Made by a program: the position numbers and the translations under genes
Origin: a virus
Lineage: Duplodnaviria > Heunggongvirae > Uroviricota > Caudoviricetes
Length of the DNA stretch: 9,199 nucleotides
IMG/VR virus record: IMGVR_UViG_2602041549_000006
Span: 1-9,199 of that record
Strand: one strand, 5' to 3'
Shown: piece by piece, positions 1 to 9,199 of the stretch
Position numbering within the stretch: the first letter of the stretch is position 1
Layout: the number at the start of each line of letters is the position of its first letter
The notes under the pieces: model-generated
What the model saw: the letters and a program-made list of their open reading frames with translations, nothing else
Database searches by the model: none
Told to the model about the DNA's origin: nothing

Positions 1-107
1 GATTCAGGGGGCCAGTCTAGAACATGATTCGCTTATCCCAGTAGTCATTACACAGGCGATACTCTTCCGTTTTCTCACCTGACTTCATCTGGTCGAAATA
101 TTCACCG

Positions 108-410
108 TTAACTGCCAGTTGAAGGTTGGCCACGACCTTCCTCCTTTGGCTTGTGAATTTGTATCGTCATGCCGCTTTGAGTGGTGACTACAATGACAGA
201 ACCAGGCTGAAGGCTGTTAAGATTGAATGCTTCGTAAAACGAATCCAATGCCAGTGCTTTTTTATTCTTTCGGTTCCACCAACGCCATCCCTTGCTACAG
301 GCTACATCGACAATCCACTGTACACTCCTGTAAGCCATATAAAACCAGATGAGCAAAACCTGAAGGAATGCTATCCAGTCAATAATCGTATATTTCGCGA
401 AGGAGTCCAT
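108..410 (-). CDS. Small hypothetical protein (about 100 aa) with one strongly hydrophobic N-terminal segment (IIDWIAFLQVLLIWFYMAY); probable small membrane protein
   Basis: ORF 108..413 in the track begins with GTG at 413; the ATG at 410-408 is preceded by a strong SD (AGGAGGTGA) and overlaps the upstream stop as TGATG. No recognisable domain. Confidence 0.45.
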   Translation of the reverse strand: MDSFAKYTIIDWIAFLQVLLIWFYMAYRSVQWIVDVACSKGWRWWNRKNKKALALDSFYEAFNLNSLQPGSVIVVTTQSGMTIQIHKPKEEGRGQPSTGS

Positions 411-919
411 CACTTCACCTCCTGCTGCGGTGCTGCTGGCATTTCACGCCAGTGCGTAACTGAGTGCGGATCCGGATATTCGGTGCCATCATCCCAGCGA
501 TTGCCATTCCACATTGCAGACCACATCTCACCGTCTTCATACATGACCATTACCGGAATTAACTTATCCGGCATTCGCTCACTACAGCTTATCCAACCAT
601 CCGGAGTTGCCGGAGAATTGCCATTTACCAAGTCAGCTCGAACATATAGCGTGTCATCATGGTGCTGATTGTGGCTGCACCACGTTAATTCGCTTAACTC
701 GCCATCTTCTGGCCATACTCCAGCCGTTTGCAGCCAGATATGGGCTGGCGCATCTTGGCAAGGTGTATTAACTGGCAACTTGTAAGTTTGGCTTACAGGT
801 TCTGCTCCCAGTGATGCCAGTGCAATCCGTGCCACTTCCATTTGTTCGCCACGGGTAAGCCCGTTATCAAGCGGATTTTTAATGGATAATTCAATACGTT
901 CTTTGGTAATAGTGGTCAT
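410..919 (-). CDS. Phage accessory protein, DUF551-like C-terminal region (169 aa)
   Basis: ATG at 919-917 with AAGGA upstream. The C-terminal stretch GWISCSERMPD...THWREMPAAP resembles the DUF551 pattern common in enterobacterial prophage early-left regions (recalled from memory). Stop overlaps the next start. Confidence 0.55.
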   Translation of the reverse strand: MTTITKERIELSIKNPLDNGLTRGEQMEVARIALASLGAEPVSQTYKLPVNTPCQDAPAHIWLQTAGVWPEDGELSELTWCSHNQHHDDTLYVRADLVNGNSPATPDGWISCSERMPDKLIPVMVMYEDGEMWSAMWNGNRWDDGTEYPDPHSVTHWREMPAAPQQEVK

Positions 920-1431
920 GCCGCGTTTCCTTCTTTCTTATTAACAATTACACCGTCATATATTTCATTAAGGTGCCCTCTCAACTCCATACGCCTTAAT
1001 GCAAATAACATGTAATCGCATTCAACCTGCTTATTTCCAGTAAATGGCTTATCGTCAGGATTACCCCAACAGCAATTACCCTTGGGCCACCCATGTACTT
1101 TCCGTACTCTTCCGTTAACAACGTGAAGTAATCCCCAGCCGGGAGGTAAATCCTCAACTGAAATAATTCCCGGCTCACTAATAAAGAATCGCCAGTCGCC
1201 CATTCCAAGAGATGGATTTTTACGAAAACGCTTTTTTCTATCTGCCAACAAGTCAGCACGAGAACACTTCGCCTCTATCAGGCATGATGCTGAATTTCTG
1301 AATCCCATAGCATCTGGCTGTTCTCCGGTACTGGTTACAGCTATAAAGCGGTCATGAAAACAAACCTTGAACCCATTGCGCTTAAGGAACTTATACGCAA
1401 TCTGACAGAGTTCGCGGTGTGTTAACGCCAT
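916..1431 (-). CDS. Hypothetical protein (171 aa) with a PD-x12-ExK arrangement (PDAMGF ... LIEAK); possible PD-(D/E)XK-fold nuclease
   Basis: Track ORF 916..1767 overlaps the upstream gene; the internal ATG at 1431-1429 has an AAGGAG SD and sits 1 nt after the upstream TGA stop. The motif was read directly from the translation; the fold assignment is inference. Confidence 0.5.
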   Translation of the reverse strand: MALTHRELCQIAYKFLKRNGFKVCFHDRFIAVTSTGEQPDAMGFRNSASCLIEAKCSRADLLADRKKRFRKNPSLGMGDWRFFISEPGIISVEDLPPGWGLLHVVNGRVRKVHGWPKGNCCWGNPDDKPFTGNKQVECDYMLFALRRMELRGHLNEIYDGVIVNKKEGNAA

Positions 1432-1432
1432 A

Positions 1433-2053
1433 TCACTCTCCTTTGATGCGAATGCCAGCTGCGCTTGCTGATTCTTCATATGCGCGTTTAGCAGCGTTAA
1501 GGATTGCTGCCAGTGGCGTATAGCCGCCATCCATTCGGATTGTGTTGTGGATGCCAGCCATTGTGTCGCGCAATTTGCTGTGGCTAGCAGACAGTTCTGC
1601 AATGCGCTTCTCTGCGGCTTCCAGCTTCTCGCGCATATCGTCAACGTACTCGACCAGAGATCCGCCAGCAGGAATTTCGCATTCCTCGACCAGTTGGAAG
1701 TAGATATCAGCTGCGGCCCGTGTGTTGCTATGCCTAGCGTCGCCCATCTCACCTTCACGAAGAGCATCGCGTTCGGCGGTAAGATTGGCTATTTTGCTGT
1801 CTTTGCCTTCCAGCTCAACGCGCAGCCTCCCTACCGTTAGCGCAATATCCTCGTTCTCCTGATCGCGGCTTTTGATGTATTGCAGGTTTCTTTCCCGTTC
1901 ATCCAACAATGCCAGCGCGATATCTGGCGAAAAGTGCTTCATAAAATCGTTAAGCGCATTAATTCGCTGATCGAAAGGCATTACAGGTGCTTCACCAGCA
2001 ATTTTTGTTTTTTCAGCGATTTCACGAAGCTTTTGATAATCAATCTTGCTCAT
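1433..2053 (-). CDS. Ead/Ea22-like phage protein (206 aa) with a coiled-coil segment
   Basis: The N-terminus MSKIDYQKLREIAEK matches the typical start of Ead/Ea22-like prophage proteins (recalled). AAGGAG SD present; ATGA overlap with the upstream gene's stop. Confidence 0.6.
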   Translation of the reverse strand: MSKIDYQKLREIAEKTKIAGEAPVMPFDQRINALNDFMKHFSPDIALALLDERERNLQYIKSRDQENEDIALTVGRLRVELEGKDSKIANLTAERDALREGEMGDARHSNTRAAADIYFQLVEECEIPAGGSLVEYVDDMREKLEAAEKRIAELSASHSKLRDTMAGIHNTIRMDGGYTPLAAILNAAKRAYEESASAAGIRIKGE

Positions 2054-2889
2054 TGGATGACTCCTTTACGAAGCTGTTCGGCGATATCTTCGAGAACGCC
2101 ATCAGAGAATGAACGGTCAAAATCGCCTTCCGGCGCATTAGCCATAAACTCAGTAGAGGTAAGAATCATCCGGGCAATATCCGCGGCGTTCTTCGCAGTA
2201 TCATCAATAAAACCAGCTTCCCAGGCAGCCAGCATTCTGTTCGCCACAAAGTAAGCGCCCTCCTTGCGTGCTTCAGTCTTCACTTCAGCCAGGAAAGCAT
2301 CGGTGGCTGGGGTGTCTGATTGCAGAGACTTTGCGCGATAGTCATTCCACCCTCTTGCATACATGGGATTAACTTGCACTCCATCTTTTACGCAATATGC
2401 CTGCCCTCCACGGTTGATAACCTTGATTTCGTCCATAGCGCCAGACTTCATCCCCGCATTCTCCGCTGCCAGCTCCGCGCACTTGGCCTCAAGAGCGGCA
2501 ACCACTTCCTGATGGTCTTTGTACTTAACGTATGAGCCGGAGATGTCATCACCTTCGGTGTTTAGCCATGCGTCATTGCAATTCACTGCGTAGGTTCTGA
2601 TGCTCTCCCGCCTATGACAGACGCCAGGCCAGTCAATAAAGTATCCGCATTCCTTCTCAGATTGCTTAAGCGATGTATTTTCAGCAGCCATCTTCGCGCA
2701 TTTAGCCTCAAGGTTATCAATCGTGATTCCAGCAGAACGACACTCCCGCAACGCCGTTTCCAGTTTTGATTCAAGTTCACCGAACTTACGGACAAGATAT
2801 TCAGCGTTTGTTTCGTTAACCTTTAAATCACTTGGGATGCATTTACCTTTCAGAAAACCATCCATCTCAATTAGTGACATTTGTTTCAT
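2050..2889 (-). CDS. Coiled-coil phage protein with an internal tandem duplication (Ea22-like region); start ambiguous
   Basis: Long minus-strand ORF. The track start at 2907 is GTG with no SD; the ATG at 2889 has GGAG upstream, so either could be real. The motif LEAKCAxxAAEN occurs twice in the protein and is visible as a DNA repeat (2476-2495 versus 2697-2715). Confidence 0.5.
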   Translation of the reverse strand: MKQMSLIEMDGFLKGKCIPSDLKVNETNAEYLVRKFGELESKLETALRECRSAGITIDNLEAKCAKMAAENTSLKQSEKECGYFIDWPGVCHRRESIRTYAVNCNDAWLNTEGDDISGSYVKYKDHQEVVAALEAKCAELAAENAGMKSGAMDEIKVINRGGQAYCVKDGVQVNPMYARGWNDYRAKSLQSDTPATDAFLAEVKTEARKEGAYFVANRMLAAWEAGFIDDTAKNAADIARMILTSTEFMANAPEGDFDRSFSDGVLEDIAEQLRKGVIQ

Positions 2890-2983
2890 TTCTTCCCACT
2901 CCGCCACATCGCATTCAGATATTTGTTGTCATTAACAGAACCGAAACTCTTTCTCTTAAGCAAGTCCTCTCATGGTAAATTCC

Positions 2984-3277
2984 TCAGTCATTACTGATAG
3001 CGCCATAACGTGAGCGGTAATTACGCAGGCGCGGGTCAATTTCAGGGAAGTGGGTATATGTGGCTTTGCGGAATGGTCGGATTGATGTCTGGTAAATTCG
3101 CTCGCGTTCTTCTTTCTCTGCAAGCCATATACAATGGCGAAATTCCTTTTCCTCTTTCGTTTCCTGCGGTATCGACATTATCAGGTTGTAGTTTTTCCTG
3201 AATTTATCCAGCACCTCCGATACGGAATTGCCGGAACATCGGCGCGCGTCATCCGCACCATACAGAGGCGCTGGCAT
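2984..3277 (-). CDS. Hypothetical small phage protein (97 aa)
   Basis: ATG at 3277-3275 preceded by an AGGAG SD; same orientation and tight spacing with neighbouring genes. No recognisable domain. Confidence 0.5.
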   Translation of the reverse strand: MPAPLYGADDARRCSGNSVSEVLDKFRKNYNLIMSIPQETKEEKEFRHCIWLAEKEERERIYQTSIRPFRKATYTHFPEIDPRLRNYRSRYGAISND

Positions 3278-3293
3278 GGTTTTCTCCTGTTGA

Positions 3294-3842
3294 TTATTTA
3301 GCTAACTTTTTCCAGATCGCTGAAACGTATTTGGCTTGGTGAATGGCATCATCAAGCGCGTTGTGGCGAGTTCCTTTGAATGGCATATCTCGCTTAGGGT
3401 CGAATCCTATTACCTTCCCAAGTTCGACGATTGTTCTTACGTCGCGGTCATTCCACCACTGCCACGGAACTGGCTGCCCTGTCAGCGAATAACTGTTTCG
3501 GAGAATAACGCAGTCAAATGATGCTCCATTCCCCCAAACCTGAACGAATTTGTGGTTAGCGTTCTTTATGATGAATTCAGATAACCATGAAAGAGCCGTT
3601 GAAAGCTCCTGAGTGTTGCTGGTTAGCGATTTTCTGGCTTCTTCACTCTGTTCCAGCCACCATAAAATCGTTGAAGCGTCAGGACGCGCTCGATATCGCA
3701 TTGATGACTCAAGCGAGATATTTACCGAGAACTCTTCTCCTGTTTCTCCGGTATTCGGGTCAAAGAATACCGCCCCAATAGAAATAACTGGCGCGTATGG
3801 CCCGTTGCCCATTGTTTCAAGGTCAACCATCAAGTGATTCAT
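3294..3842 (-). CDS. 3'-5' exonuclease, DEDD(h)/DnaQ-like fold (182 aa)
   Basis: N-terminal MVDLETMG (Exo I motif, D-x-E) and C-terminal HNALDDA (Exo III motif, H-x4-D) read from the translation. AAGGA SD upstream of the ATG at 3842. Confidence 0.7.
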   Translation of the reverse strand: MNHLMVDLETMGNGPYAPVISIGAVFFDPNTGETGEEFSVNISLESSMRYRARPDASTILWWLEQSEEARKSLTSNTQELSTALSWLSEFIIKNANHKFVQVWGNGASFDCVILRNSYSLTGQPVPWQWWNDRDVRTIVELGKVIGFDPKRDMPFKGTRHNALDDAIHQAKYVSAIWKKLAK

Positions 3843-3850
3843 GTAAGTCC

Positions 3851-4330
3851 TTAAATTGCGTGAATAGCGTGACGAGGGAAGGGGAGAGTTACTGGCTCCT
3901 CGTCTGGGTAGATAGGTTTGTTATGTTTGTGCCACTCGACATGACATGACTTGCAGAGCCACATCACATCGGTTGGTTTGCTGTAGTCGCAGTGGTGCGC
4001 CTGTGGTTTACATTCTGATCCGCAGCACTCACATTGTGGTGGTCGGATTAGCTTACCGTCGCGCAAAAAATTACCCACAATGATGTGGGCTTTTCTTTTC
4101 CATGGGTTGCTCTGAATGAACCGCTTTTTGGCTGCGTTACACCGTTCTCTTCCGCGTTCCGATGATTGATATTCTCTCCTTGCTGATACTCGATGTGGCA
4201 ATCCAGCGCGTTCTTTGTCGTATTCAGCCAGGCAAGCCCGGCAAGCGGCAGTTAATCCATCTCTGGATGCTCTTCTGATTTGAAAGTCCCTTTCTTCCTT
4301 ATGTTGATGGCATCTTGAGCAGATTTTCAT
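3851..4330 (-). CDS. HNH endonuclease (159 aa), zinc-binding, free-standing
   Basis: C-terminal QCECCG ... AHHCDYSKP ... WLCKSCHVEWH gives the HNH catalytic His pair plus Cys4-type metal ligands; additional CxxC pairs at the N-terminus. AGGAG SD upstream. Confidence 0.7.
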   Translation of the reverse strand: MKICSRCHQHKEERDFQIRRASRDGLTAACRACLAEYDKERAGLPHRVSARREYQSSERGRERCNAAKKRFIQSNPWKRKAHIIVGNFLRDGKLIRPPQCECCGSECKPQAHHCDYSKPTDVMWLCKSCHVEWHKHNKPIYPDEEPVTLPFPRHAIHAI

Positions 4331-4339
4331 ATTCAGCTC

Positions 4340-4813
4340 CTAGAACGGAATATCCGAATCGTCGAAGTTCATAGGTGGTTCGCTGTGATTCCCATGCTGC
4401 TGAGATTGCTGTCTTTGTTGCTGGCCGTTATTTCGCTGAGGTGAAGACTGTTCATTGCCTCCTTGCTTGCCACCAAGCATTTGCATGGTTCCACCAACGC
4501 CTACGATAACTTCGGTAGTGAACCGATCCTGTCCACTTTGATCCTGCCATTTTCTTGTCCGCAATTTGCCTTCAAGATAAACCTCTGAGCCTTTCCGCAG
4601 ATACTCGCTGGCAATTTCTGCCAGTTTCCCGCTCATTACCACACGGTGCCACTCCGTCTGCTCCTTTTGCTCTCCAGTTTGCTTATCACGCCATTGTTCT
4701 GACGTAGCAACTGTAAGGTTTGCAAATGCCGTTCCTGATGGTGAATATCTGATTTCTGGATCATGCCCAAGGCGACCAATAATGATCACCTTATTTACGC
4801 CTCTGCTTGCCAT
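4340..4813 (-). CDS. ssb: Single-stranded DNA-binding protein SSB (157 aa)
   Basis: OB-fold N-terminus ([17 protein letters not shown]...), Gly/Gln-rich linker and the canonical acidic tail DDSDIPF. Confidence 0.9.
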
Positions 4814-5521
4814 TTATGCCGCCTGTTTTAGCTCGTTAACTCTGATGTTCATTACCTGAACGCATTTAGCCTGCGCATCCTCATTGCCAGCCATTAATTG
4901 CCAGTCACGCTGATAACGCTCTATGAGTTTTTTCTTGTCAGTTTCTGTTGATGCATAATCGCTGAAGTCTTTCAGGATTTGTTCGCAGTCAACCGATGGA
5001 GATTTCTGGTTGGTATTTTCTGGTGATGGTTTGTTATCTGATGCTGGGATTGCCCATCCCGGCAGCGATGGAGGGAGCCAGTAAAATCCTGTTCCATCCT
5101 TCAGTTTTGCCCTGTGCCACCCCTGCTTTTTATCGAGAGATGTTTGTGCGAAACCTTCCTCAAGGTTATACAGATACCGACCGATTCCCCATTGAACGGC
5201 AGCACGCTTCATTGCACCGGAACGACCACCTTTGACGGCTTCTACCTGCGTGTTTTCAGCAGCATCCCATTTGGTTACCCATTCGGAATCAATCTTGATT
5301 GATATGCCGCATTCAACTCCGCCGTTGTTGGGAATATCGCGGTATTCATTGCGCCATCCTGCTTTGCCGCAAACATCGTCCAGGCGTTTCATGATTGCCC
5401 GGTTCGTGACATAAGCCAGCACCATAGCCCACACCTTGCCATCGCGTGTTTTACCGCTTTGCTGTATTCGCCATTCGATATCTTCAGGGCTGAATGGCTC
5501 ATCGAATTTGTTCAAATCCAT
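4814..5521 (-). CDS. Single-strand annealing recombinase, Rad52/Sak-like family (235 aa); functional analogue of lambda Bet / P22 Erf
   Basis: Motifs GWRNEY, GGVECGISI and AVQWGIGRYLY fit Rad52-family annealing proteins (recalled). Sits immediately upstream of ssb, with a GAGGTGA SD. Confidence 0.65.
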   Translation of the reverse strand: MDLNKFDEPFSPEDIEWRIQQSGKTRDGKVWAMVLAYVTNRAIMKRLDDVCGKAGWRNEYRDIPNNGGVECGISIKIDSEWVTKWDAAENTQVEAVKGGRSGAMKRAAVQWGIGRYLYNLEEGFAQTSLDKKQGWHRAKLKDGTGFYWLPPSLPGWAIPASDNKPSPENTNQKSPSVDCEQILKDFSDYASTETDKKKLIERYQRDWQLMAGNEDAQAKCVQVMNIRVNELKQAA

Positions 5522-5620
5522 AATTCACCTCAGAATGGACACGGCCCAAGAAAATAACGCTGATTTAATACTTCGACTCGGGACAAATTAAGGCATACCC
5601 GCATTCCTTCGCGGTCACCA

Positions 5621-5779
5621 TTATGGCGATACCAGAGAGCTTTCTGCGTGTACATGCGTCTCTGTAACTTGCTCTCCTTCACTGTGGTTGCAAGTGACAT
5701 GAATATCTCCTTCGTTACCGATTAATTCTTTCATCTGACGAATGAATTCTTCGTCTGACCATTTATCTGTAAAACTCAT
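5621..5779 (-). CDS. Small protein (52 aa) in the kil position, downstream of and translationally coupled to cIII; function unknown
   Basis: ATG at 5779-5777 overlaps the cIII stop as ATGA. Assignment is by position only; the longer track ORF 5621..5809 would overlap cIII by 34 nt. Confidence 0.35.
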   Translation of the reverse strand: MSFTDKWSDEEFIRQMKELIGNEGDIHVTCNHSEGEQVTETHVHAESSLVSP

Positions 5780-5946
5780 GGACGGCCTTGTTGTTTCAAA
5801 ATATCCCAAAGCTTTTCGAGCAAACTTTTCATTCTTGGTTGTTTAAAGTCTGCTCCGGTTAAAATGTTTTTTCGTGAATGCTGTACCGATAAAATCGGGT
5901 TGAAAGGGCGAACCGATGCCGCCCCTGCAATAGCGAACTGTTGCAT
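5776..5946 (-). CDS. cIII: CIII-like protein (56 aa); regulator that protects CII from FtsH
   Basis: Internal ATG at 5946-5944 with an AAGGAG SD. The protein MQQFAIAGAAS...LLEKLWDILKQQGRP resembles lambda CIII (MQYAIAGW...LIDILNQPGVP) in start, length and C-terminus. The longer track ORF would read through the terminator hairpin. Confidence 0.65.
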   Translation of the reverse strand: MQQFAIAGAASVRPFNPILSVQHSRKNILTGADFKQPRMKSLLEKLWDILKQQGRP

Positions 5947-6011
5947 AGGATGCTCCTTCTGTTTGATTGCATAACGAAAACGCCTCGAGTGAAGCGTTAT
6001 TGGTATGCATA

Positions 6012-6036
6012 TAAAAAAGCCCTCACACTGGAGGGC
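6012..6036 (-). terminator. Intrinsic terminator on the minus strand (tL1-like), downstream of the N plus orf156 unit
   Basis: The minus strand reads GCCCTC-cagtgt-GAGGGC followed by TTTTTTAT: a 6-bp GC stem, 6-nt loop and T6 tract. There is no T-tract on the plus-strand side. Confidence 0.6.
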
Positions 6037-6098
6037 AAAGAAGATTTCCAATAATCAGAACAAGTCGGCTCCTGTTTAGTTACGAGCGACATTGCTCC

Positions 6099-6126
6099 GT
6101 GTATTCACTCGTTGGAATGAATACAC
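6099..6126. repeat. Perfect 9-bp inverted repeat (GTGTATTCA-N10-TGAATACAC) just 3' of orf156
   Basis: Read directly from the sequence; no adjacent U-tract, so not a classical terminator. Confidence 0.5.
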
Positions 6127-6140
6127 AGTGCTTATTCGTA

Positions 6141-6611
6141 CTAATAAAACACCCAGTTTTCTGTTTCTTGGTTGTGTCCAAAGTTATATTCAATACCTGG
6201 TGTTGATGTATCAATATTCTTCATCCCATCAACAAGAGTTGATACAACAGCCAAATCTTGTTTGATTCTCATCAAATGGTATTTCTTCCGGCGCAATAAA
6301 CTTTCAATGGCAAGTTTCTTCGTCGGGAATGCAAAAGATCTTTCTGCATTTTTTGCTACTTTCTTAATTGCATATCTATTTCTCCTTTGTTTCCATTCCT
6401 GTAACCACTGATTTGGTGCTGGTTTAAAATTAACAATCCAATGCGCAGGAACCAACCATGCATAATGCTCTGTCTGATGAAAAGCTATATATTGAAGTGC
6501 GAATATTTTGATTCCATCTTCTTCAACTGTCGCTTGGAATCTCCAGAAAACAGGCATTCCATCATGTTCAGTTTCTGATTCAGGAAAAGGTACGCTCCAT
6601 GATTTTGTCAT
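6141..6611 (-). CDS. Hypothetical protein (156 aa), AT-rich moron in the ral/sieB position directly after N; function unknown
   Basis: ATG at 6611-6609 with SD GAGGTGA overlapping the N stop codon. The segment is visibly AT-rich compared with its flanks. No recognisable domain, no transmembrane segment. Confidence 0.6.
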   Translation of the reverse strand: MTKSWSVPFPESETEHDGMPVFWRFQATVEEDGIKIFALQYIAFHQTEHYAWLVPAHWIVNFKPAPNQWLQEWKQRRNRYAIKKVAKNAERSFAFPTKKLAIESLLRRKKYHLMRIKQDLAVVSTLVDGMKNIDTSTPGIEYNFGHNQETENWVFY

Positions 6612-6619
6612 ATATCACC

Positions 6620-6955
6620 TCAAATAAGTGGTTTGCTGCCTAATTTCATTTTCTGGCGACCAACACAAGTCACACCCATTTCACTGCGTGGCTTGCGGTA
6701 GTAAATACGATTCTGTTTACTCTCGACTTCATCTGCCTTCTTGCAGCGAAGGATTCCGAGTGATATTGCTTTTTCAGAAAGGCTTAAACGCTTTCTTGGG
6801 GCTTCCTGAACAGGTTCCTCACTGTCTGTGCCGAAGATAGAATCAATGATGTTGCAGATGGCATCACGCTCGATAGCCAGCTTTCTGCGCCGCTCATGAC
6901 GGCGAGTTTTGGCATTTCCTGCAAATGTTGATTTCCCGTACACGATTACCGTCAT
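6620..6955 (-). CDS. N: Antitermination protein N (112 aa) with a P22-type arginine-rich motif and a lambda-like C-terminus
   Basis: The N-terminus MTVIVYGKSTFAGNAKTRRHERRRKLAIER matches the P22 N ARM peptide (recalled); the C-terminus YYRKPRSEMGVTCVGRQKMKLGSKPLI parallels the lambda N C-terminus (WYSKPGERGITCSGRQKIKGKSIPLI). ATG at 6955 with AGGA upstream; the track ORF extends to 7039. Confidence 0.85.
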   Translation of the reverse strand: MTVIVYGKSTFAGNAKTRRHERRRKLAIERDAICNIIDSIFGTDSEEPVQEAPRKRLSLSEKAISLGILRCKKADEVESKQNRIYYRKPRSEMGVTCVGRQKMKLGSKPLI

Positions 6956-7074
6956 GATGTTTTCCTCATGTGAAATGGCTTTGGTGGTGATGCGCCAGAT
7001 GCTGATCTTCTGGTTGCTGTCGTTGCAGCTGCAATTCACATCACCGCCAAATCCATCTCGTTTGGTATCTGTTT

Positions 7075-7109
7075 GCGCTTTGTCAGCGCCCCATCGAAGT
7101 TAAAGAGCA
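7075..7109 (-). promoter_or_regulatory. nutL: boxA (TGCTCTTTA) and boxB hairpin (GCGCTGACAAAGCGC)
   Basis: On the minus strand: boxA-like TGCTCTTTA, a 12-nt spacer, then a 4-bp GCGC stem closing a loop that contains GACAA. This matches my recollection of P22 nutL boxB. It lies between the predicted PL and N. Confidence 0.7.
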
Positions 7110-7154
7110 TGCCAATCTGTTCCGTTTGGCTTCCAGCTTCCTGCTGATGGCTAA

Positions 7155-7183
7155 ATAGTACGATGTGTACTTTATTGAGTCAA
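7155..7183 (-). promoter_or_regulatory. PL candidate: -35 TTGACT (7178-7183), 17-bp spacer, -10 TACTAT (7155-7160), overlapped by operator-like palindromes
   Basis: Hexamers read on the minus strand. The 13-bp perfect palindrome TATTGAGTCAATA (7173-7185) overlaps the -35 and AGTAC-N5-GTACT (7157-7171) overlaps the -10/spacer. Confidence 0.5.
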
Positions 7184-7242
7184 TACAAAATGTTCTAAAT
7201 ATAATTAGTTTTTTATAACGCTTTGTATTTAATAGGTTTATA

Positions 7243-7278
7243 TTTTGGAAAAAGAAAACCCGACGCTAAGGTCGGGTT
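7243..7278 (-). terminator. Intrinsic terminator downstream of cI (weaker on the plus strand)
   Basis: 8-bp stem AACCCGAC/GTCGGGTT with a 6-nt loop; on the minus strand it is followed by TTCTTTTTCC, on the plus strand by ATTGTTGTGTATTTT. Confidence 0.6.
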
Positions 7279-7308
7279 ATTGTTGTGTATTTTAGAGTTG
7301 TGAGGCTG

Positions 7309-7968
7309 TTAACTAAATGTCTCTTCAGGCCACTGGCTGGCGATAACTTTCCCTACTACGGAACAGCTATCATTGCATGGAATCATTGGATATTGCGGGT
7401 TTAGTGGCTGTAGGAACACCTGACCGCTATCCCTGATCAGTTTCTTGAAGGTAAACTCATCACCTCCAAGTCTGGCTATGCAAAAATCACCGGGCTCAAT
7501 AGCCTGCTCAGGGTCAACAAGAATTAACATCCCGTCAGGAAAGCTTGGCTTGGATCCTGTTGGCGCGGTCATGGAATTACCTTCAACCTCAAGCCAGAAT
7601 GCAGAATCACTGGCTTTTTTGGTTGTGCTTACCCATCTCTCCGCATCACCTTTGGTAAAGGTTCTAAGCTCAGGCGAGAACATCCCGGCCTGAACATGAG
7701 AAAAAACAGGGTACTCATATTGTTTTTTAACGGGGGCAGATGAGTATTCGCCAACAGGTGAAAATGTACCGTCGTGGTTGAATGAGACGTTATCAATACC
7801 AAGGTATTTAAACACCACACCAATCTCGTCAAGAGATGGATGACGAGATCCGCGCAACCAGTGACCAATTCCACCCTGCGTCATACCAAGCTCTTCAGCT
7901 AACTTCTCTTGAGTTATGCCGAGTTCTTTCATTCTGGATCTAGCCAGTTCATACCATTTCATTTTCAT
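7309..7968 (-). CDS. cI: CI-type prophage repressor (219 aa): non-lambda N-terminal HTH domain fused to a lambda-cI-like LexA/S24 C-terminal domain
   Basis: The C-terminal about 130 aa ([19 protein letters not shown] ... [12 protein letters not shown]) is near-identical to lambda cI as I recall it, including the Ala-Gly cleavage site and the Ser and Lys of the catalytic dyad; the N-terminal about 85 aa is different. ATG at 7968-7966 with an AAGGA SD; the track ORF extends to 8043. Confidence 0.9.
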
Positions 7969-8024
7969 ATCCTTATTATTACGCTCTGTACTAAAACCAT
8001 CCATGCACAAGATGTATTTTTTGT

Positions 8025-8053
8025 TTGCATTCCAAAAGTACATATCGTATTAT
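8025..8053 (+). promoter_or_regulatory. PR candidate: -35 TTGCAT (8025-8030), 17 bp, -10 TATTAT (8048-8053), inside the OR region 7969-8079
   Basis: Best sigma70-like match on the plus strand upstream of cro; SD GGAGGG at 8071-8076. Operator half-sites could not be defined confidently; AGTACATATCGTATT (8036-8050) and ATTACGCTCTGTACT (7979-7993) resemble the OL element. Confidence 0.4.
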
Positions 8054-8079
8054 TGTTTCATGATTACTATGGAGGGCAT

Positions 8080-8295
8080 ATGAGCAACCTACGAAAATAT
8101 CGAGAGTCACTGAATATCTCTCAAACAACACTTGCTAAGGCGGTTGGATGCACACAGGGAGCTATCGGACATTGGGAATCTGGTCGTCGCTTCCCAGACC
8201 TTAAAACATGCCGTGCTCTTGTTGCGTGCCTAAACAAGTTAGGCGCAAAAGTCAGTCTTGATGACGTGTTCCCACCGGAACACAAAGCCGCTTAA
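8080..8295 (+). CDS. cro: Cro-like HTH repressor (71 aa)
   Basis: Divergent from cI across a 111-bp operator region; ATG at 8080 with a GGAGGG SD; HTH segment QTTLAKAVGCTQGAIGHWESG. The track ORF 7909..8295 is an upstream extension without an SD. Confidence 0.8.
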   Translation: MSNLRKYRESLNISQTTLAKAVGCTQGAIGHWESGRRFPDLKTCRALVACLNKLGAKVSLDDVFPPEHKAA

Positions 8296-8305
8296 TAAGC
8301 GGATC

Positions 8306-8340
8306 CGCTCTTTATCAATCTGCACCGCCGACAACGCGGT
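8306..8340 (+). promoter_or_regulatory. nutR: boxA (CGCTCTTTA, 8306-8314) and boxB hairpin (ACCGC-cGACAAc-GCGGT, 8324-8340)
   Basis: Consensus boxA followed 9 nt later by a 5-bp stem whose loop contains GACAA, the same loop core as the nutL boxB, as expected for a P22-type N. Confidence 0.7.
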
Positions 8341-8352
8341 AACTAATTAAGC

Positions 8353-8385
8353 ACTCATCGAAAGATGAGTATTAGTGATTATTTA
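8353..8385 (+). terminator. tR1-position hairpin (ACTCATC-GAAA-GATGAGT) followed by a weakly T-rich tract
   Basis: 7-bp stem with a GAAA tetraloop between nutR and cII; the downstream tract ATTAGTGATTATTTA is only moderately U-rich, so this may be a weak or N-suppressible terminator. Confidence 0.35.
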
Positions 8386-8394
8386 CCTATGGAA

Positions 8395-8437
8395 ATAGTA
8401 AGAAATGGAACAAACAAGTTACAGCAAACTATCACAG
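8395..8437 (-). promoter_or_regulatory. PRE-like CII-dependent promoter: TTGC-N6-TTGT box (8424-8437) and -10 TACTAT (8395-8400)
   Basis: On the minus strand TTGCtgtaacTTGT lies at codons 7-11 of cII, analogous to the lambda TTGC-N6-TTGC site in early cII codons; a 17-bp spacer then TACTAT. Confidence 0.4.
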
Positions 8438-8701
8438 CGCGATGTTGATCGCGCAGAAACAGATTTACTTATCAACCTGTCAACGCTTACACAGCGCGGT
8501 CTGGCAAAGATGATTGGCTGTCATGAATCGAAGATAAGCAGAACGGACTGGAGATTTATTGCTTCGGTCTTGTGTGCTTTCGGAATGGCATCAGACATCA
8601 GTCCGATTAGCAGGGCTTTTAAGTATGCGCTTGATGGACTCACCAATAAAAAACGCCCGGCGGCAACCGAGCGTTCTTATCAAATACAAATGGAATTTTA
8701 A
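8405..8701 (+). CDS. cII: CII transcriptional activator (98 aa)
   Basis: The C-terminus LTNKKRPAATERSYQIQMEF is nearly identical to lambda CII (ILTNKKRPAATERSEQIQMEF, recalled); length and position after cro and nutR fit. Confidence 0.9.
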   Translation: MEQTSYSKLSQRDVDRAETDLLINLSTLTQRGLAKMIGCHESKISRTDWRFIASVLCAFGMASDISPISRAFKYALDGLTNKKRPAATERSYQIQMEF

Positions 8702-8712
8702 CAACATCCAGC
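8646..8712 (-). ncRNA. OOP-like antisense RNA overlapping the 3' end of cII (terminator 8645-8673, putative -10 TATAAT at 8719-8724)
   Basis: On the minus strand: stem CGCUCGG/CCGGGCG (one G-U pair), loop UUGCCG, then UUUUUUAUU; matches my recollection of the lambda oop terminator. A TATAAT hexamer lies about 70 nt upstream on the minus strand. The 5' end is inferred. Confidence 0.5.
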
Positions 8713-8723
8713 GAGGTAATTAT

Positions 8724-8867
8724 ATGCGAAAAACGCAGGAAAATAAACGCGTTAATCACCGAAAAGATGTGCTACGTGACCAGTTTTATCAGGGGGTTAA
8801 TCCAGCAATAGCTGTGCCACTGAGAGAAATACTTAACAGGTACAAAACTTCGGAGAAGTCAAAATGA
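8724..8867 (+). CDS. Small hypothetical basic protein (47 aa) between cII and the replication gene
   Basis: ATG at 8724 with a GAGGT SD; stop overlaps the next start as ATGA. The track ORF 8559..8867 extends upstream into cII in another frame. Confidence 0.4.
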   Translation: MRKTQENKRVNHRKDVLRDQFYQGVNPAIAVPLREILNRYKTSEKSK

Positions 8868-9199
8868 GCATGAATCTTATGGCTAAGGCCATGAATATAA
8901 AGGTTGGCAACCCACTGAGAAAACTGGTTCTGATTAAACTTGCCGATAACGCCAATGATAATGGCGAATGCTGGCCTTCATATCAACATGTCGCTGACCA
9001 GTGTGAGGTGAGCAGATCGACAGTAAAAAGTCACATTAGGGCACTGGAAGAGATGGGGCTTTTGAAAAGGGAATTCAGAAGAAAAGGAGAGCTTAACCAG
9101 TCAAACGTTTTTTATCTGACGCTGGATAATGCACAACAAATCCAACCAGAATCAGGTGGGGCAGGAGCTGCCCGGGGTGGGGCAGGAGCTGCCCGGGGT
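8864..9199 (+). CDS. Replication initiator, O-like, with N-terminal winged-HTH (5' partial, runs off the window end)
   Basis: Open frame from the ATG at 8864 to the window end (112 codons, no stop). The translation MSMNLMAKAMNIKVGNPLRKLVLIKLADNANDNGECWPSYQHVADQCEVSRSTVKSHIRALEEMGLLKR is HTH-like and the gene is in the O position; iteron-like repeats lie inside it. Confidence 0.65.
   Translation, partial: MSMNLMAKAMNIKVGNPLRKLVLIKLADNANDNGECWPSYQHVADQCEVSRSTVKSHIRALEEMGLLKREFRRKGELNQSNVFYLTLDNAQQIQPESGGAGAARGGAGAARG
9155..9199 (+). repeat. Iteron-like direct repeats (putative ori): 21-bp unit GGTGGGGCAGGAGCTGCCCGG, two exact copies plus the start of a third at the window edge
   Basis: Exact tandem copies at 9155-9175 and 9176-9196; each unit contains the dyad GGGCAG-gag-CTGCCC. 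In frame they encode a Gly/Ala-rich linker (GGAGAARG repeated). Confidence 0.6.

Follow-up and report, generated by a model that had tools for sequence, protein, structure and literature searches.

Six putative repressor operators in the PL/OL and OR control regions of a lambdoid prophage of VT2-Sakai immunity type

Background

Control of divergent lytic promoters by a repressor that binds two groups of dyad operators, OL and OR, is established for phage lambda. The closest described relatives of the locus analysed here are the Stx-converting phages of the VT2-Sakai immunity type, namely VT2-Sakai (Sp5) and the Stx1-converting phage / Stx2 phage II, an immunity also found in the Nil2, 2851 and PA phages; the VT2-Sa immunity region was probably first described by Fattah et al. 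in 2000. The record of an Stx1-converting phage (AP005153) marks 17-bp 'putative operators', three each at OR and OL, plus PL, PR and PRM, and in the VT2-Sakai record (AP000422) putative operators are likewise annotated at OL. These annotations are predictions in every record. A literature search for footprint, EMSA or binding data for the cognate repressor on these operators found none, and the sole EMSA found on VT2-Sakai sites used the non-cognate lambda CI, which had micromolar affinity. The VT2-Sakai operator sequences listed in Table S1 of PMC10742460 differ from those reported below mainly at central and flanking bases. The BAA2326 repressor footprints of PMC5977221 were considered as a match and set aside because they concern a different lambda-like immunity with unrelated operators.

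The DNA analysed here (below, the window) is a stretch of 9,199 nucleotides from a virus of the Caudoviricetes, positions 1 to 9,199 of IMG/VR record IMGVR_UViG_2602041549_000006. A preliminary description, made from the sequence alone, had pointed to two palindromes overlapping a predicted PL promoter, had considered both to be operator-like, and had left the operator consensus unsettled. We conclude, with a probability of about 90%, that positions 7155-7229 are the PL/OL region of a lambdoid prophage with VT2-Sakai/Stx1-phage immunity, where cI dimers would bind three dyads of the form ARTAC-N5-GTAYT. This is an ordinary feature, already annotated (as a prediction) in VT2-Sakai-type phages.

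Results and discussion

Genes and promoters of the early-control region

The window comes from a lambdoid prophage, of which it is the early-control region, and has the lambdoid layout of flanking genes. The cI repressor gene (7309-7968, minus strand; Pfam HTH_3 and Peptidase_S24) encodes a 219-aa protein with the recognition helix TQGGIGHW and a lambda-type S24 C-terminal domain. Divergent from it is cro (8080-8295, plus strand; 71 aa, Pfam HTH_3, recognition helix TQGAIGHW), with cII beyond (8405-8701, plus strand; Pfam Phage_CII). To the left, the N antiterminator gene (6620-6955, minus strand; Pfam N_peptide, E = 7e-26) is the first gene of the PL transcript. No rex-like genes were found between cI and OL in the window. 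A terminator scan placed a terminator-like hairpin (7257-7278, minus strand), with an 8-bp stem and a T-run on either strand (AACCCGAC...GTCGGGTT), between the cI stop codon and OL3, just upstream of the latter. It ends the cI transcript, and a 'rho independent terminator for pRM transcript' is annotated at the same relative position in VT2-Sakai.

The promoter calls are consensus matches only. On the minus strand the scan found a promoter at 7183-7155 (9/12), with -35 TTGACT at 7183-7178, a 17-nt spacer and -10 TACTAT at 7160-7155, in agreement with the earlier placement of PL. That this promoter is PL follows from what lies downstream: a shared leader, boxA, boxB and then N. The leader (7120-7155) is common to P22, phage 21 and others, in which it is annotated as the PL RNA start, and alignment with VT2-Sakai brings the 'putative major leftward promoter' of that phage onto the same position. 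The nutL site (7075-7108, minus strand) was located by exact string matches to a boxA-like GCTCTTTAA (reverse complement at 7100-7108) and to boxB GCGCTGACAAAGCGC (reverse complement at 7075-7089); by likeness to the P22 sequences, the first is the putative nutL boxA and the second a putative boxB of P22 type. VT2-Sakai has a 'putative N-utilization leftward' feature at the equivalent place.

PR (8024-8053, plus strand) also scored 9/12, reading TTTGCA/TTGCAT ... TATTAT, and the 'putative major rightward promoter' of AP005153 falls at 8024-8053. The predicted PRM has a weak -35 (TGGATG, 8003-7998) and a -10 at 7980-7975 (AATAAT). PL and PR both contain AAAGTACA[C/T]ATCGTA[C/T]TAT.

A six-site operator set

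Both palindromes of the preliminary description are present in the sequence, AGTAC-N5-GTACT at 7157-7171 and a 13-bp element at 7173-7185. Its statements that the former overlaps the -10 and spacer and the latter the -35 are also correct, since the scan puts the promoter at 7183-7155. Palindromy by itself was dropped as evidence, both palindrome classes being common by chance; perfect 5-N5-5 palindromes number 21 in the window as against 9.0 +/- 2.7 in shuffled sequences. What lifts the AGTAC element above chance is not its being palindromic but the recurrence of one motif. At up to one mismatch, AGTACNNNNNGTACT has four matches in the window (0.07 expected), a number reached in 0 of 200 shuffles; at up to two mismatches there are five (1.44 expected), four of which lie in the two short control regions. 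A repeat search (seed 6, minimum length 8) listed neither palindrome because their arms are only 5-6 nt long, and returned only OL2 and OL3, as a mutual inverted repeat, and the terminator hairpin.

With up to three mismatches to AGTACNNNNNGTACT there are three sites at OL and three at OR, and their 15-bp consensus is ARTAC-N5-GTAYT. OL1 (7157-7171; AGTAC GATGT GTACT, or AGTACGATGTGTACT) is a perfect dyad without mismatch and covers the PL spacer and 4 nt of the -10. OL2 (7182-7196; AATAC AAAAT GTTCT) has two mismatches and shares 2 nt with the upstream end of the -35, and OL3 (7215-7229; ATAAC GCTTT GTATT) has three. The centres of these sites lie 25 bp (OL1-OL2) and 33 bp (OL2-OL3) apart, at about -16, -41 and -74 relative to PL. 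On the other side, OR3 (7978-7992; ATTAC GCTCT GTACT, or ATTACGCTCTGTACT) has one mismatch and lies over the -10 and spacer of the predicted PRM. OR2 (8004-8018; TGCAC AAGAT GTATT), the weakest of the six with three mismatches, abuts the PRM -35. OR1 (8037-8051; AGTAC ATATC GTATT, or AGTACATATCGTATT) has one mismatch and sits between the PR -35 and -10, in the position that OL1 occupies in PL. The OR centre spacings are 33 and 26 bp. Aligned, the twelve half-sites read A-R-T-A-C; the last A and the C do not vary.

The set was checked by a leave-one-out test in which a position weight matrix (PWM) was built from five sites and the omitted site was ranked among the 9185 positions of the window. 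Five of the six sites rank 2nd to 6th (OL1 2, OL2 4, OL3 5, OR1 2), and OR2, a weak match, ranks 20th. OL1 has the top PWM score in the window. Outside the control regions, TGTACTTTCCGTACT at 1094-1108, in coding DNA about 6 kb to the left of OL, is an operator-like dyad with one mismatch. Its PWM score of 8.8 is below those of all six operators and it is probably a chance occurrence, though it may be a distal cI site.

Mapped via alignments, the annotated operators of the Stx phages fall at 7156-7172, 7181-7197 and 7214-7230 (OL) and at 7977-7993, 8003-8019 and 8035-8051 (OR), so that all six sites found here coincide with annotated putative operators. The consensus that had been thought unsettled is therefore ARTAC-N5-GTAYT, already marked as putative operators in the VT2-Sakai and Stx1-phage records. 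Of the two palindromes first described as operator-like, AGTAC-N5-GTACT is the putative OL1 and the 13-bp element is not an operator (see below). The imperfect copies reported at 7979-7993 and 8036-8050 do exist, as OR3 and OR1, with a best register one base away in each case (7978-7992 and 8037-8051); OL2, OL3 and OR2 had been missed. The consensus and the positions of the six sites are now fixed for this prophage, which has little significance beyond correct annotation.

Membership of the VT2-Sakai immunity type

The Cro protein is 100% identical to that of the Stx1-converting phage, and cI is 97% identical with an identical helix-turn-helix. Together with the shared operators, this assigns the prophage to the VT2-Sakai immunity type, a clinically relevant one. 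Eleven of the twelve half-sites are the same as in the VT2-Sakai and Stx1 phages, the exception being a single base in OL3 (ATAAC here, ACAAC there), and the spacing and the placement of PL, PR and PRM are equal. The central bases differ: in OL1 there is G here and A in the Stx phages, in OL2 AAAAT and AATTT, in OR2 AAGAT and AATGT, and in OR1 C and T. There are differences on a larger scale too. OL directly follows the cI terminator in the window, whereas in the Stx phages about 1.5 kb of additional ORFs come between cI and OL, and N and nutL are of P22 type here but of HK97/933W type there.

Conservation among loci with the same repressor domain

A scan of IMG/VR gave 80 loci whose cI N-terminal domain is 100% identical to that of the window. 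Only 100%-identical domains were returned, which suits a comparison of spacers with sites; distant relatives were taken from a genome-contig scan. The IMG/VR loci, the window and the Stx1-converting phage together make 37 distinct haplotypes at OL and 29 at OR. Column classes were tallied by hand from per-column tables. Polymorphism affects 5 of 60 half-site columns, each in only one or two haplotypes, 11 of 30 columns of the central N5 and 27 of 57 spacer columns. The contrast between half-sites and spacers is strong (Fisher p = 2e-6), bearing in mind that the haplotypes are closely related and the counts are not independent events.

The same pattern is seen site by site. In the 37 OL haplotypes the half-sites of OL1 are invariant or nearly so and its centre base, 7165, varies freely; variation in OL2 is restricted to 7182 (one haplotype) and the centre (7189/7190); and in OL3 it falls mostly in the centre (7220-7222), the half-sites being nearly invariant and both flanks variable. 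In the 29 OR haplotypes OR3 is invariant, OR2 is variable only at the centre (8011/8012) and OR1 only at the central positions 8044 and 8046. The OL1-OL2 and OR2-OR3 spacings (25-26 bp) show no indels among haplotypes. Between OR2 and the PR -35 there is a run of 5 to 8 T, mostly 6-8 (8017-8024 in the window, with the equivalent run in loci L007-L086), and the OR1-OR2 spacing consequently varies, mostly from 33 to 35 bp. Of 5426 complete E. coli genomes, 468 contain the OL segment.

Recognition helix and half-site in distant relatives

In locus L090, whose N-terminal domain is 83% identical (helix TQGGVGHW), the same sites are found between diverged spacers. Phage L has AATAC/AGTAC-N5-GTAYT sites spaced 25 and 30 bp at OL and 26 and 34 bp at OR, and in HK630 (helix TQGAVGHY) AATAC-N5-GTATT sites come in pairs spaced 25 bp. 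Phage L and HK620/HK630 thus resemble the present prophage in pairing related helices (GAIGHW, TQGAVGHY) with related half-sites (AATAC/AGTAC-N5-GTAYT), in the 25-bp O1-O2 spacing at OL and in the shared PL leader. They differ in having diverged repressors and, in HK630, a Cro of a different type. Relatives in the Morganellaceae (helix SKGAVGHW) have TATAC-N5-GTAT sites. Further away, all 71 Pseudomonas homologues with the helix SQGGIGHW (orthologues of one another, hence not independent events) have A[GA]TAC-N5-GTAYT with a PWM score of at least 12 within 160 bp upstream, a score found in 4.5% of all 160-bp segments of those loci. The central 5 bp of these upstream sites varies.

To judge from these sequence comparisons, relatives that keep the helix keep the half-site, and the pairing of [ST]QGxIGHW with ARTAC holds out to the Pseudomonas chromosomal repressors. 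This correspondence could help to predict operators for this HTH subfamily. In Pseudomonas (L096-L166) the sites lie about 56-90 bp upstream of a conserved chromosomal gene for an HTH plus S24-like repressor, and in one locus (L104) the repressor gene adjoins a biotin-carboxylase-like gene with no obvious prophage.

Are all six sites operators? The true operators could be OL1, OL2, OR1 and OR3 only, with OL3 and OR2 vestigial or conserved for some other reason such as promoter context. OL3 and OR2 each have three mismatches to the dyad, OR2 is only 20th when left out of the PWM, and its position beside the PRM -35 could alone explain its conservation; phage 933W is reported to have only two OL sites (PMC4587872). 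We nevertheless consider this unlikely, because OL3 and OR2 both vary in the way of an operator, with the outer 5-mers conserved and the centre and flanks variable, both are kept at the same spacing in phage L (OR2 as CACAC..GTATT), OR2 is kept in L090 too, and OL3 still ranks 5th among the 9185 positions when the PWM is built without it. Weak sites of the OR2 type that are filled by cooperativity are normal in lambda. Relative KD values are given in Table 1 of PMC5977221.

The 13-bp palindrome at PL

The element at 7173-7185, TATTGAGTCAATA, reads TATTGA-G-TCAATA, a 6-N1-6 palindrome with perfect arms. Palindromes of this class occur at chance frequency, with 2 in the window against 2.4 +/- 1.5 in shuffles, and related copies at up to three mismatches are not above chance either (9 against 6.1 expected). 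The operator PWM gives the element scores of -15 to -31. An operator should be a conserved dyad with multiple copies in the control regions, and neither property was found for it.

Perfect arms are present in 22 of 74 loci with an identical cI N-terminal domain. In the others the left arm is TATCGA (45 loci), TACTGA (3), TATCAA (2), TATTGG (1) or TATTTG (1), and position 7176 is C in 20 of the 37 OL haplotypes. The left arm (7173-7178), which lies within the OL1-OL2 spacer, is the most variable stretch of PL; five of its six positions are polymorphic, and the right arm never changes in compensation. The right arm is made up of the -35 hexamer and the first bases of OL2, and this accounts for its conservation. 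In more distant phages GTCAATAC is unchanged but is preceded by unrelated left arms, CACTTG in the Stx1 phage and TGCTTG in L089, which have the same immunity, and TAATGG in L090 and AATATC in phage L, which have related repressors. The Stx phages lack the palindrome because their OL1-OL2 spacer is different. For the preliminary description, lack of conservation in phages with the same cI N-terminal domain was to count against an operator role, and this is what the 13-bp element shows. As far as conservation and copy number go, it is not an operator and not a functional unit. Its conserved part being the -35 and the start of OL2, the palindrome is incidental, an accident of the spacer in this lineage, and it should not be annotated as an operator.

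Might it instead be a genuine second site over the -35, for Cro, another phage regulator or a host factor? It is a perfect dyad placed exactly on the -35, and the commonest haplotype has a version of it with one mismatch, TATCGAGTCAATA. Such a role is very improbable given the uncompensated changes in the left arm and the unrelated left arms in phages with the same cI and Cro as well as in L090 and phage L. Nor did a search of OR, where Cro and cI must act too, find a copy with fewer than three mismatches. The idea that the palindromes in general have arisen by chance in AT-rich intergenic DNA and take no part in regulation can be dismissed: single 5-N5-5 and 6-N1-6 palindromes are indeed common in 9 kb, but six copies of one motif restricted to two control regions, conserved in a footprint-like pattern, identically placed inside PL and PR, and found upstream of homologous repressors in other genera are not.

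Proposed action of cI and Cro, and comparison with lambda

Multiple dyads of one consensus lie on both sides of cI, and the O1 sites overlap the cores of the divergent promoters PL and PR, as in the tripartite OL/OR regions of lambdoid phages. From site positions, motif recurrence, conservation and identity with annotation, all of which were computed, we infer binding, repression and cooperativity. With lambda as the model, cI dimers at OL1, between the -35 and -10, would exclude RNA polymerase from PL; OL2, which touches the upstream edge of the -35, and OL3 would add cooperative occupancy. The OR sites would control PR and PRM likewise, with OR1 inside PR, OR2 by the PRM -35 and OR3 over the PRM -10. 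The PRM start would fall near 7968, on the first base of the cI ATG, which puts the OR2 centre near -43, a position suited to activation.

Cro would be expected on the same six sites. It is related to the cI N-terminal domain (35% identity, E = 6e-12) and the two have the recognition-helix start TQG(G/A)IGHW in common. The C-terminal domain of cI is nearly identical to that of lambda cI (PDB 3bdn, 8gmu) from about residue 84, and for this reason RecA-stimulated self-cleavage and dimer-dimer cooperativity are expected as in lambda. A PDB search with the cI N-terminal domain returned only generic HTH relatives and lambda repressor. The protein is a natural domain hybrid, with a lambda-type C-terminal domain and a DNA-binding N-terminal domain that is only distantly related to lambda's. 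For Cro, the closest solved structure of the family appears to be PDB 28tn (E = 4.5e-17), described as a 'lambda repressor-like protein' of 82 aa, with no bound DNA indicated in the search result.

Several features are shared with lambda. Each side has three dyad operators, O1 falling within the lytic promoter; at PRM, OR2 adjoins the -35 and OR3 covers the -10. The cI and cro genes diverge, PL is followed by nutL and N, the module for cleavage and cooperativity is common to both, and PRM is predicted to start at the first base of the cI ATG, matching lambda's leaderless cI mRNA. The differences lie first in the DNA-binding domain and the operators, which are ARTAC-N5-GTAYT here and TATCACCGCCAGTGGTA in lambda. 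Here OR2 lies clear of the PR -35, the rex genes are absent, and OL and OR are about 0.9 kb apart rather than 2.3 kb. Operator centres are 25 and 33 bp apart at OL, and at OR the distances are 33 and 26 bp, against 24/20 and 24/23 in lambda; this non-lambda spacing in combination with a lambda cooperativity domain is mildly notable.

The close pairs are OL1-OL2 (25 bp) and OR2-OR3 (26 bp), with OR1 and OR2 at 33-35 bp. It is possible, if rather unlikely, that the operators are paired differently from those of lambda despite the lambda cooperativity domain. If the cooperative pair at OR were OR2-OR3, PRM would be shut off at a lower repressor level, with lower steady-state cI and easier induction as the outcome. 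Such pairing would fit the 'hair-trigger' behaviour proposed for Stx phages (PMC5977221).

Mosaic structure and related loci

No full-length match to the whole window was found in the complete E. coli genomes; the window is a mosaic. Homology to phages of the same immunity starts at about 7136, and for the Stx phages only at 7309; the start near 7136 marks a mosaic joint adjoining PL. The N gene, with the arginine-rich motif GNAKTRRHERRRKLAIER, and nutL, with boxB GCGCTGACAAAGCGC, belong to the P22 type, and same-immunity phages (Dewey, the Stx phages) have other N genes.

At the other end of the window (9150-9199) there are two tandem 21-bp units, GGTGGGGCAGGAGCTGCCCGG, each containing the palindrome GGGCAG-GAG-CTGCCC, within an ORF that resembles a replication initiator and is cut off by the end of the window. 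By analogy with lambda O, these may be origin iterons within the initiator gene.

Finally, Klebsiella phage phiKp_30 (L004, positions 1600-1900) has the same OL1, a degenerate OL2, and near-identical OR and Cro. Its cI is deleted to a 53-aa stub, which suggests that a phage of this immunity type has given rise naturally to a clear-plaque or virulent form.
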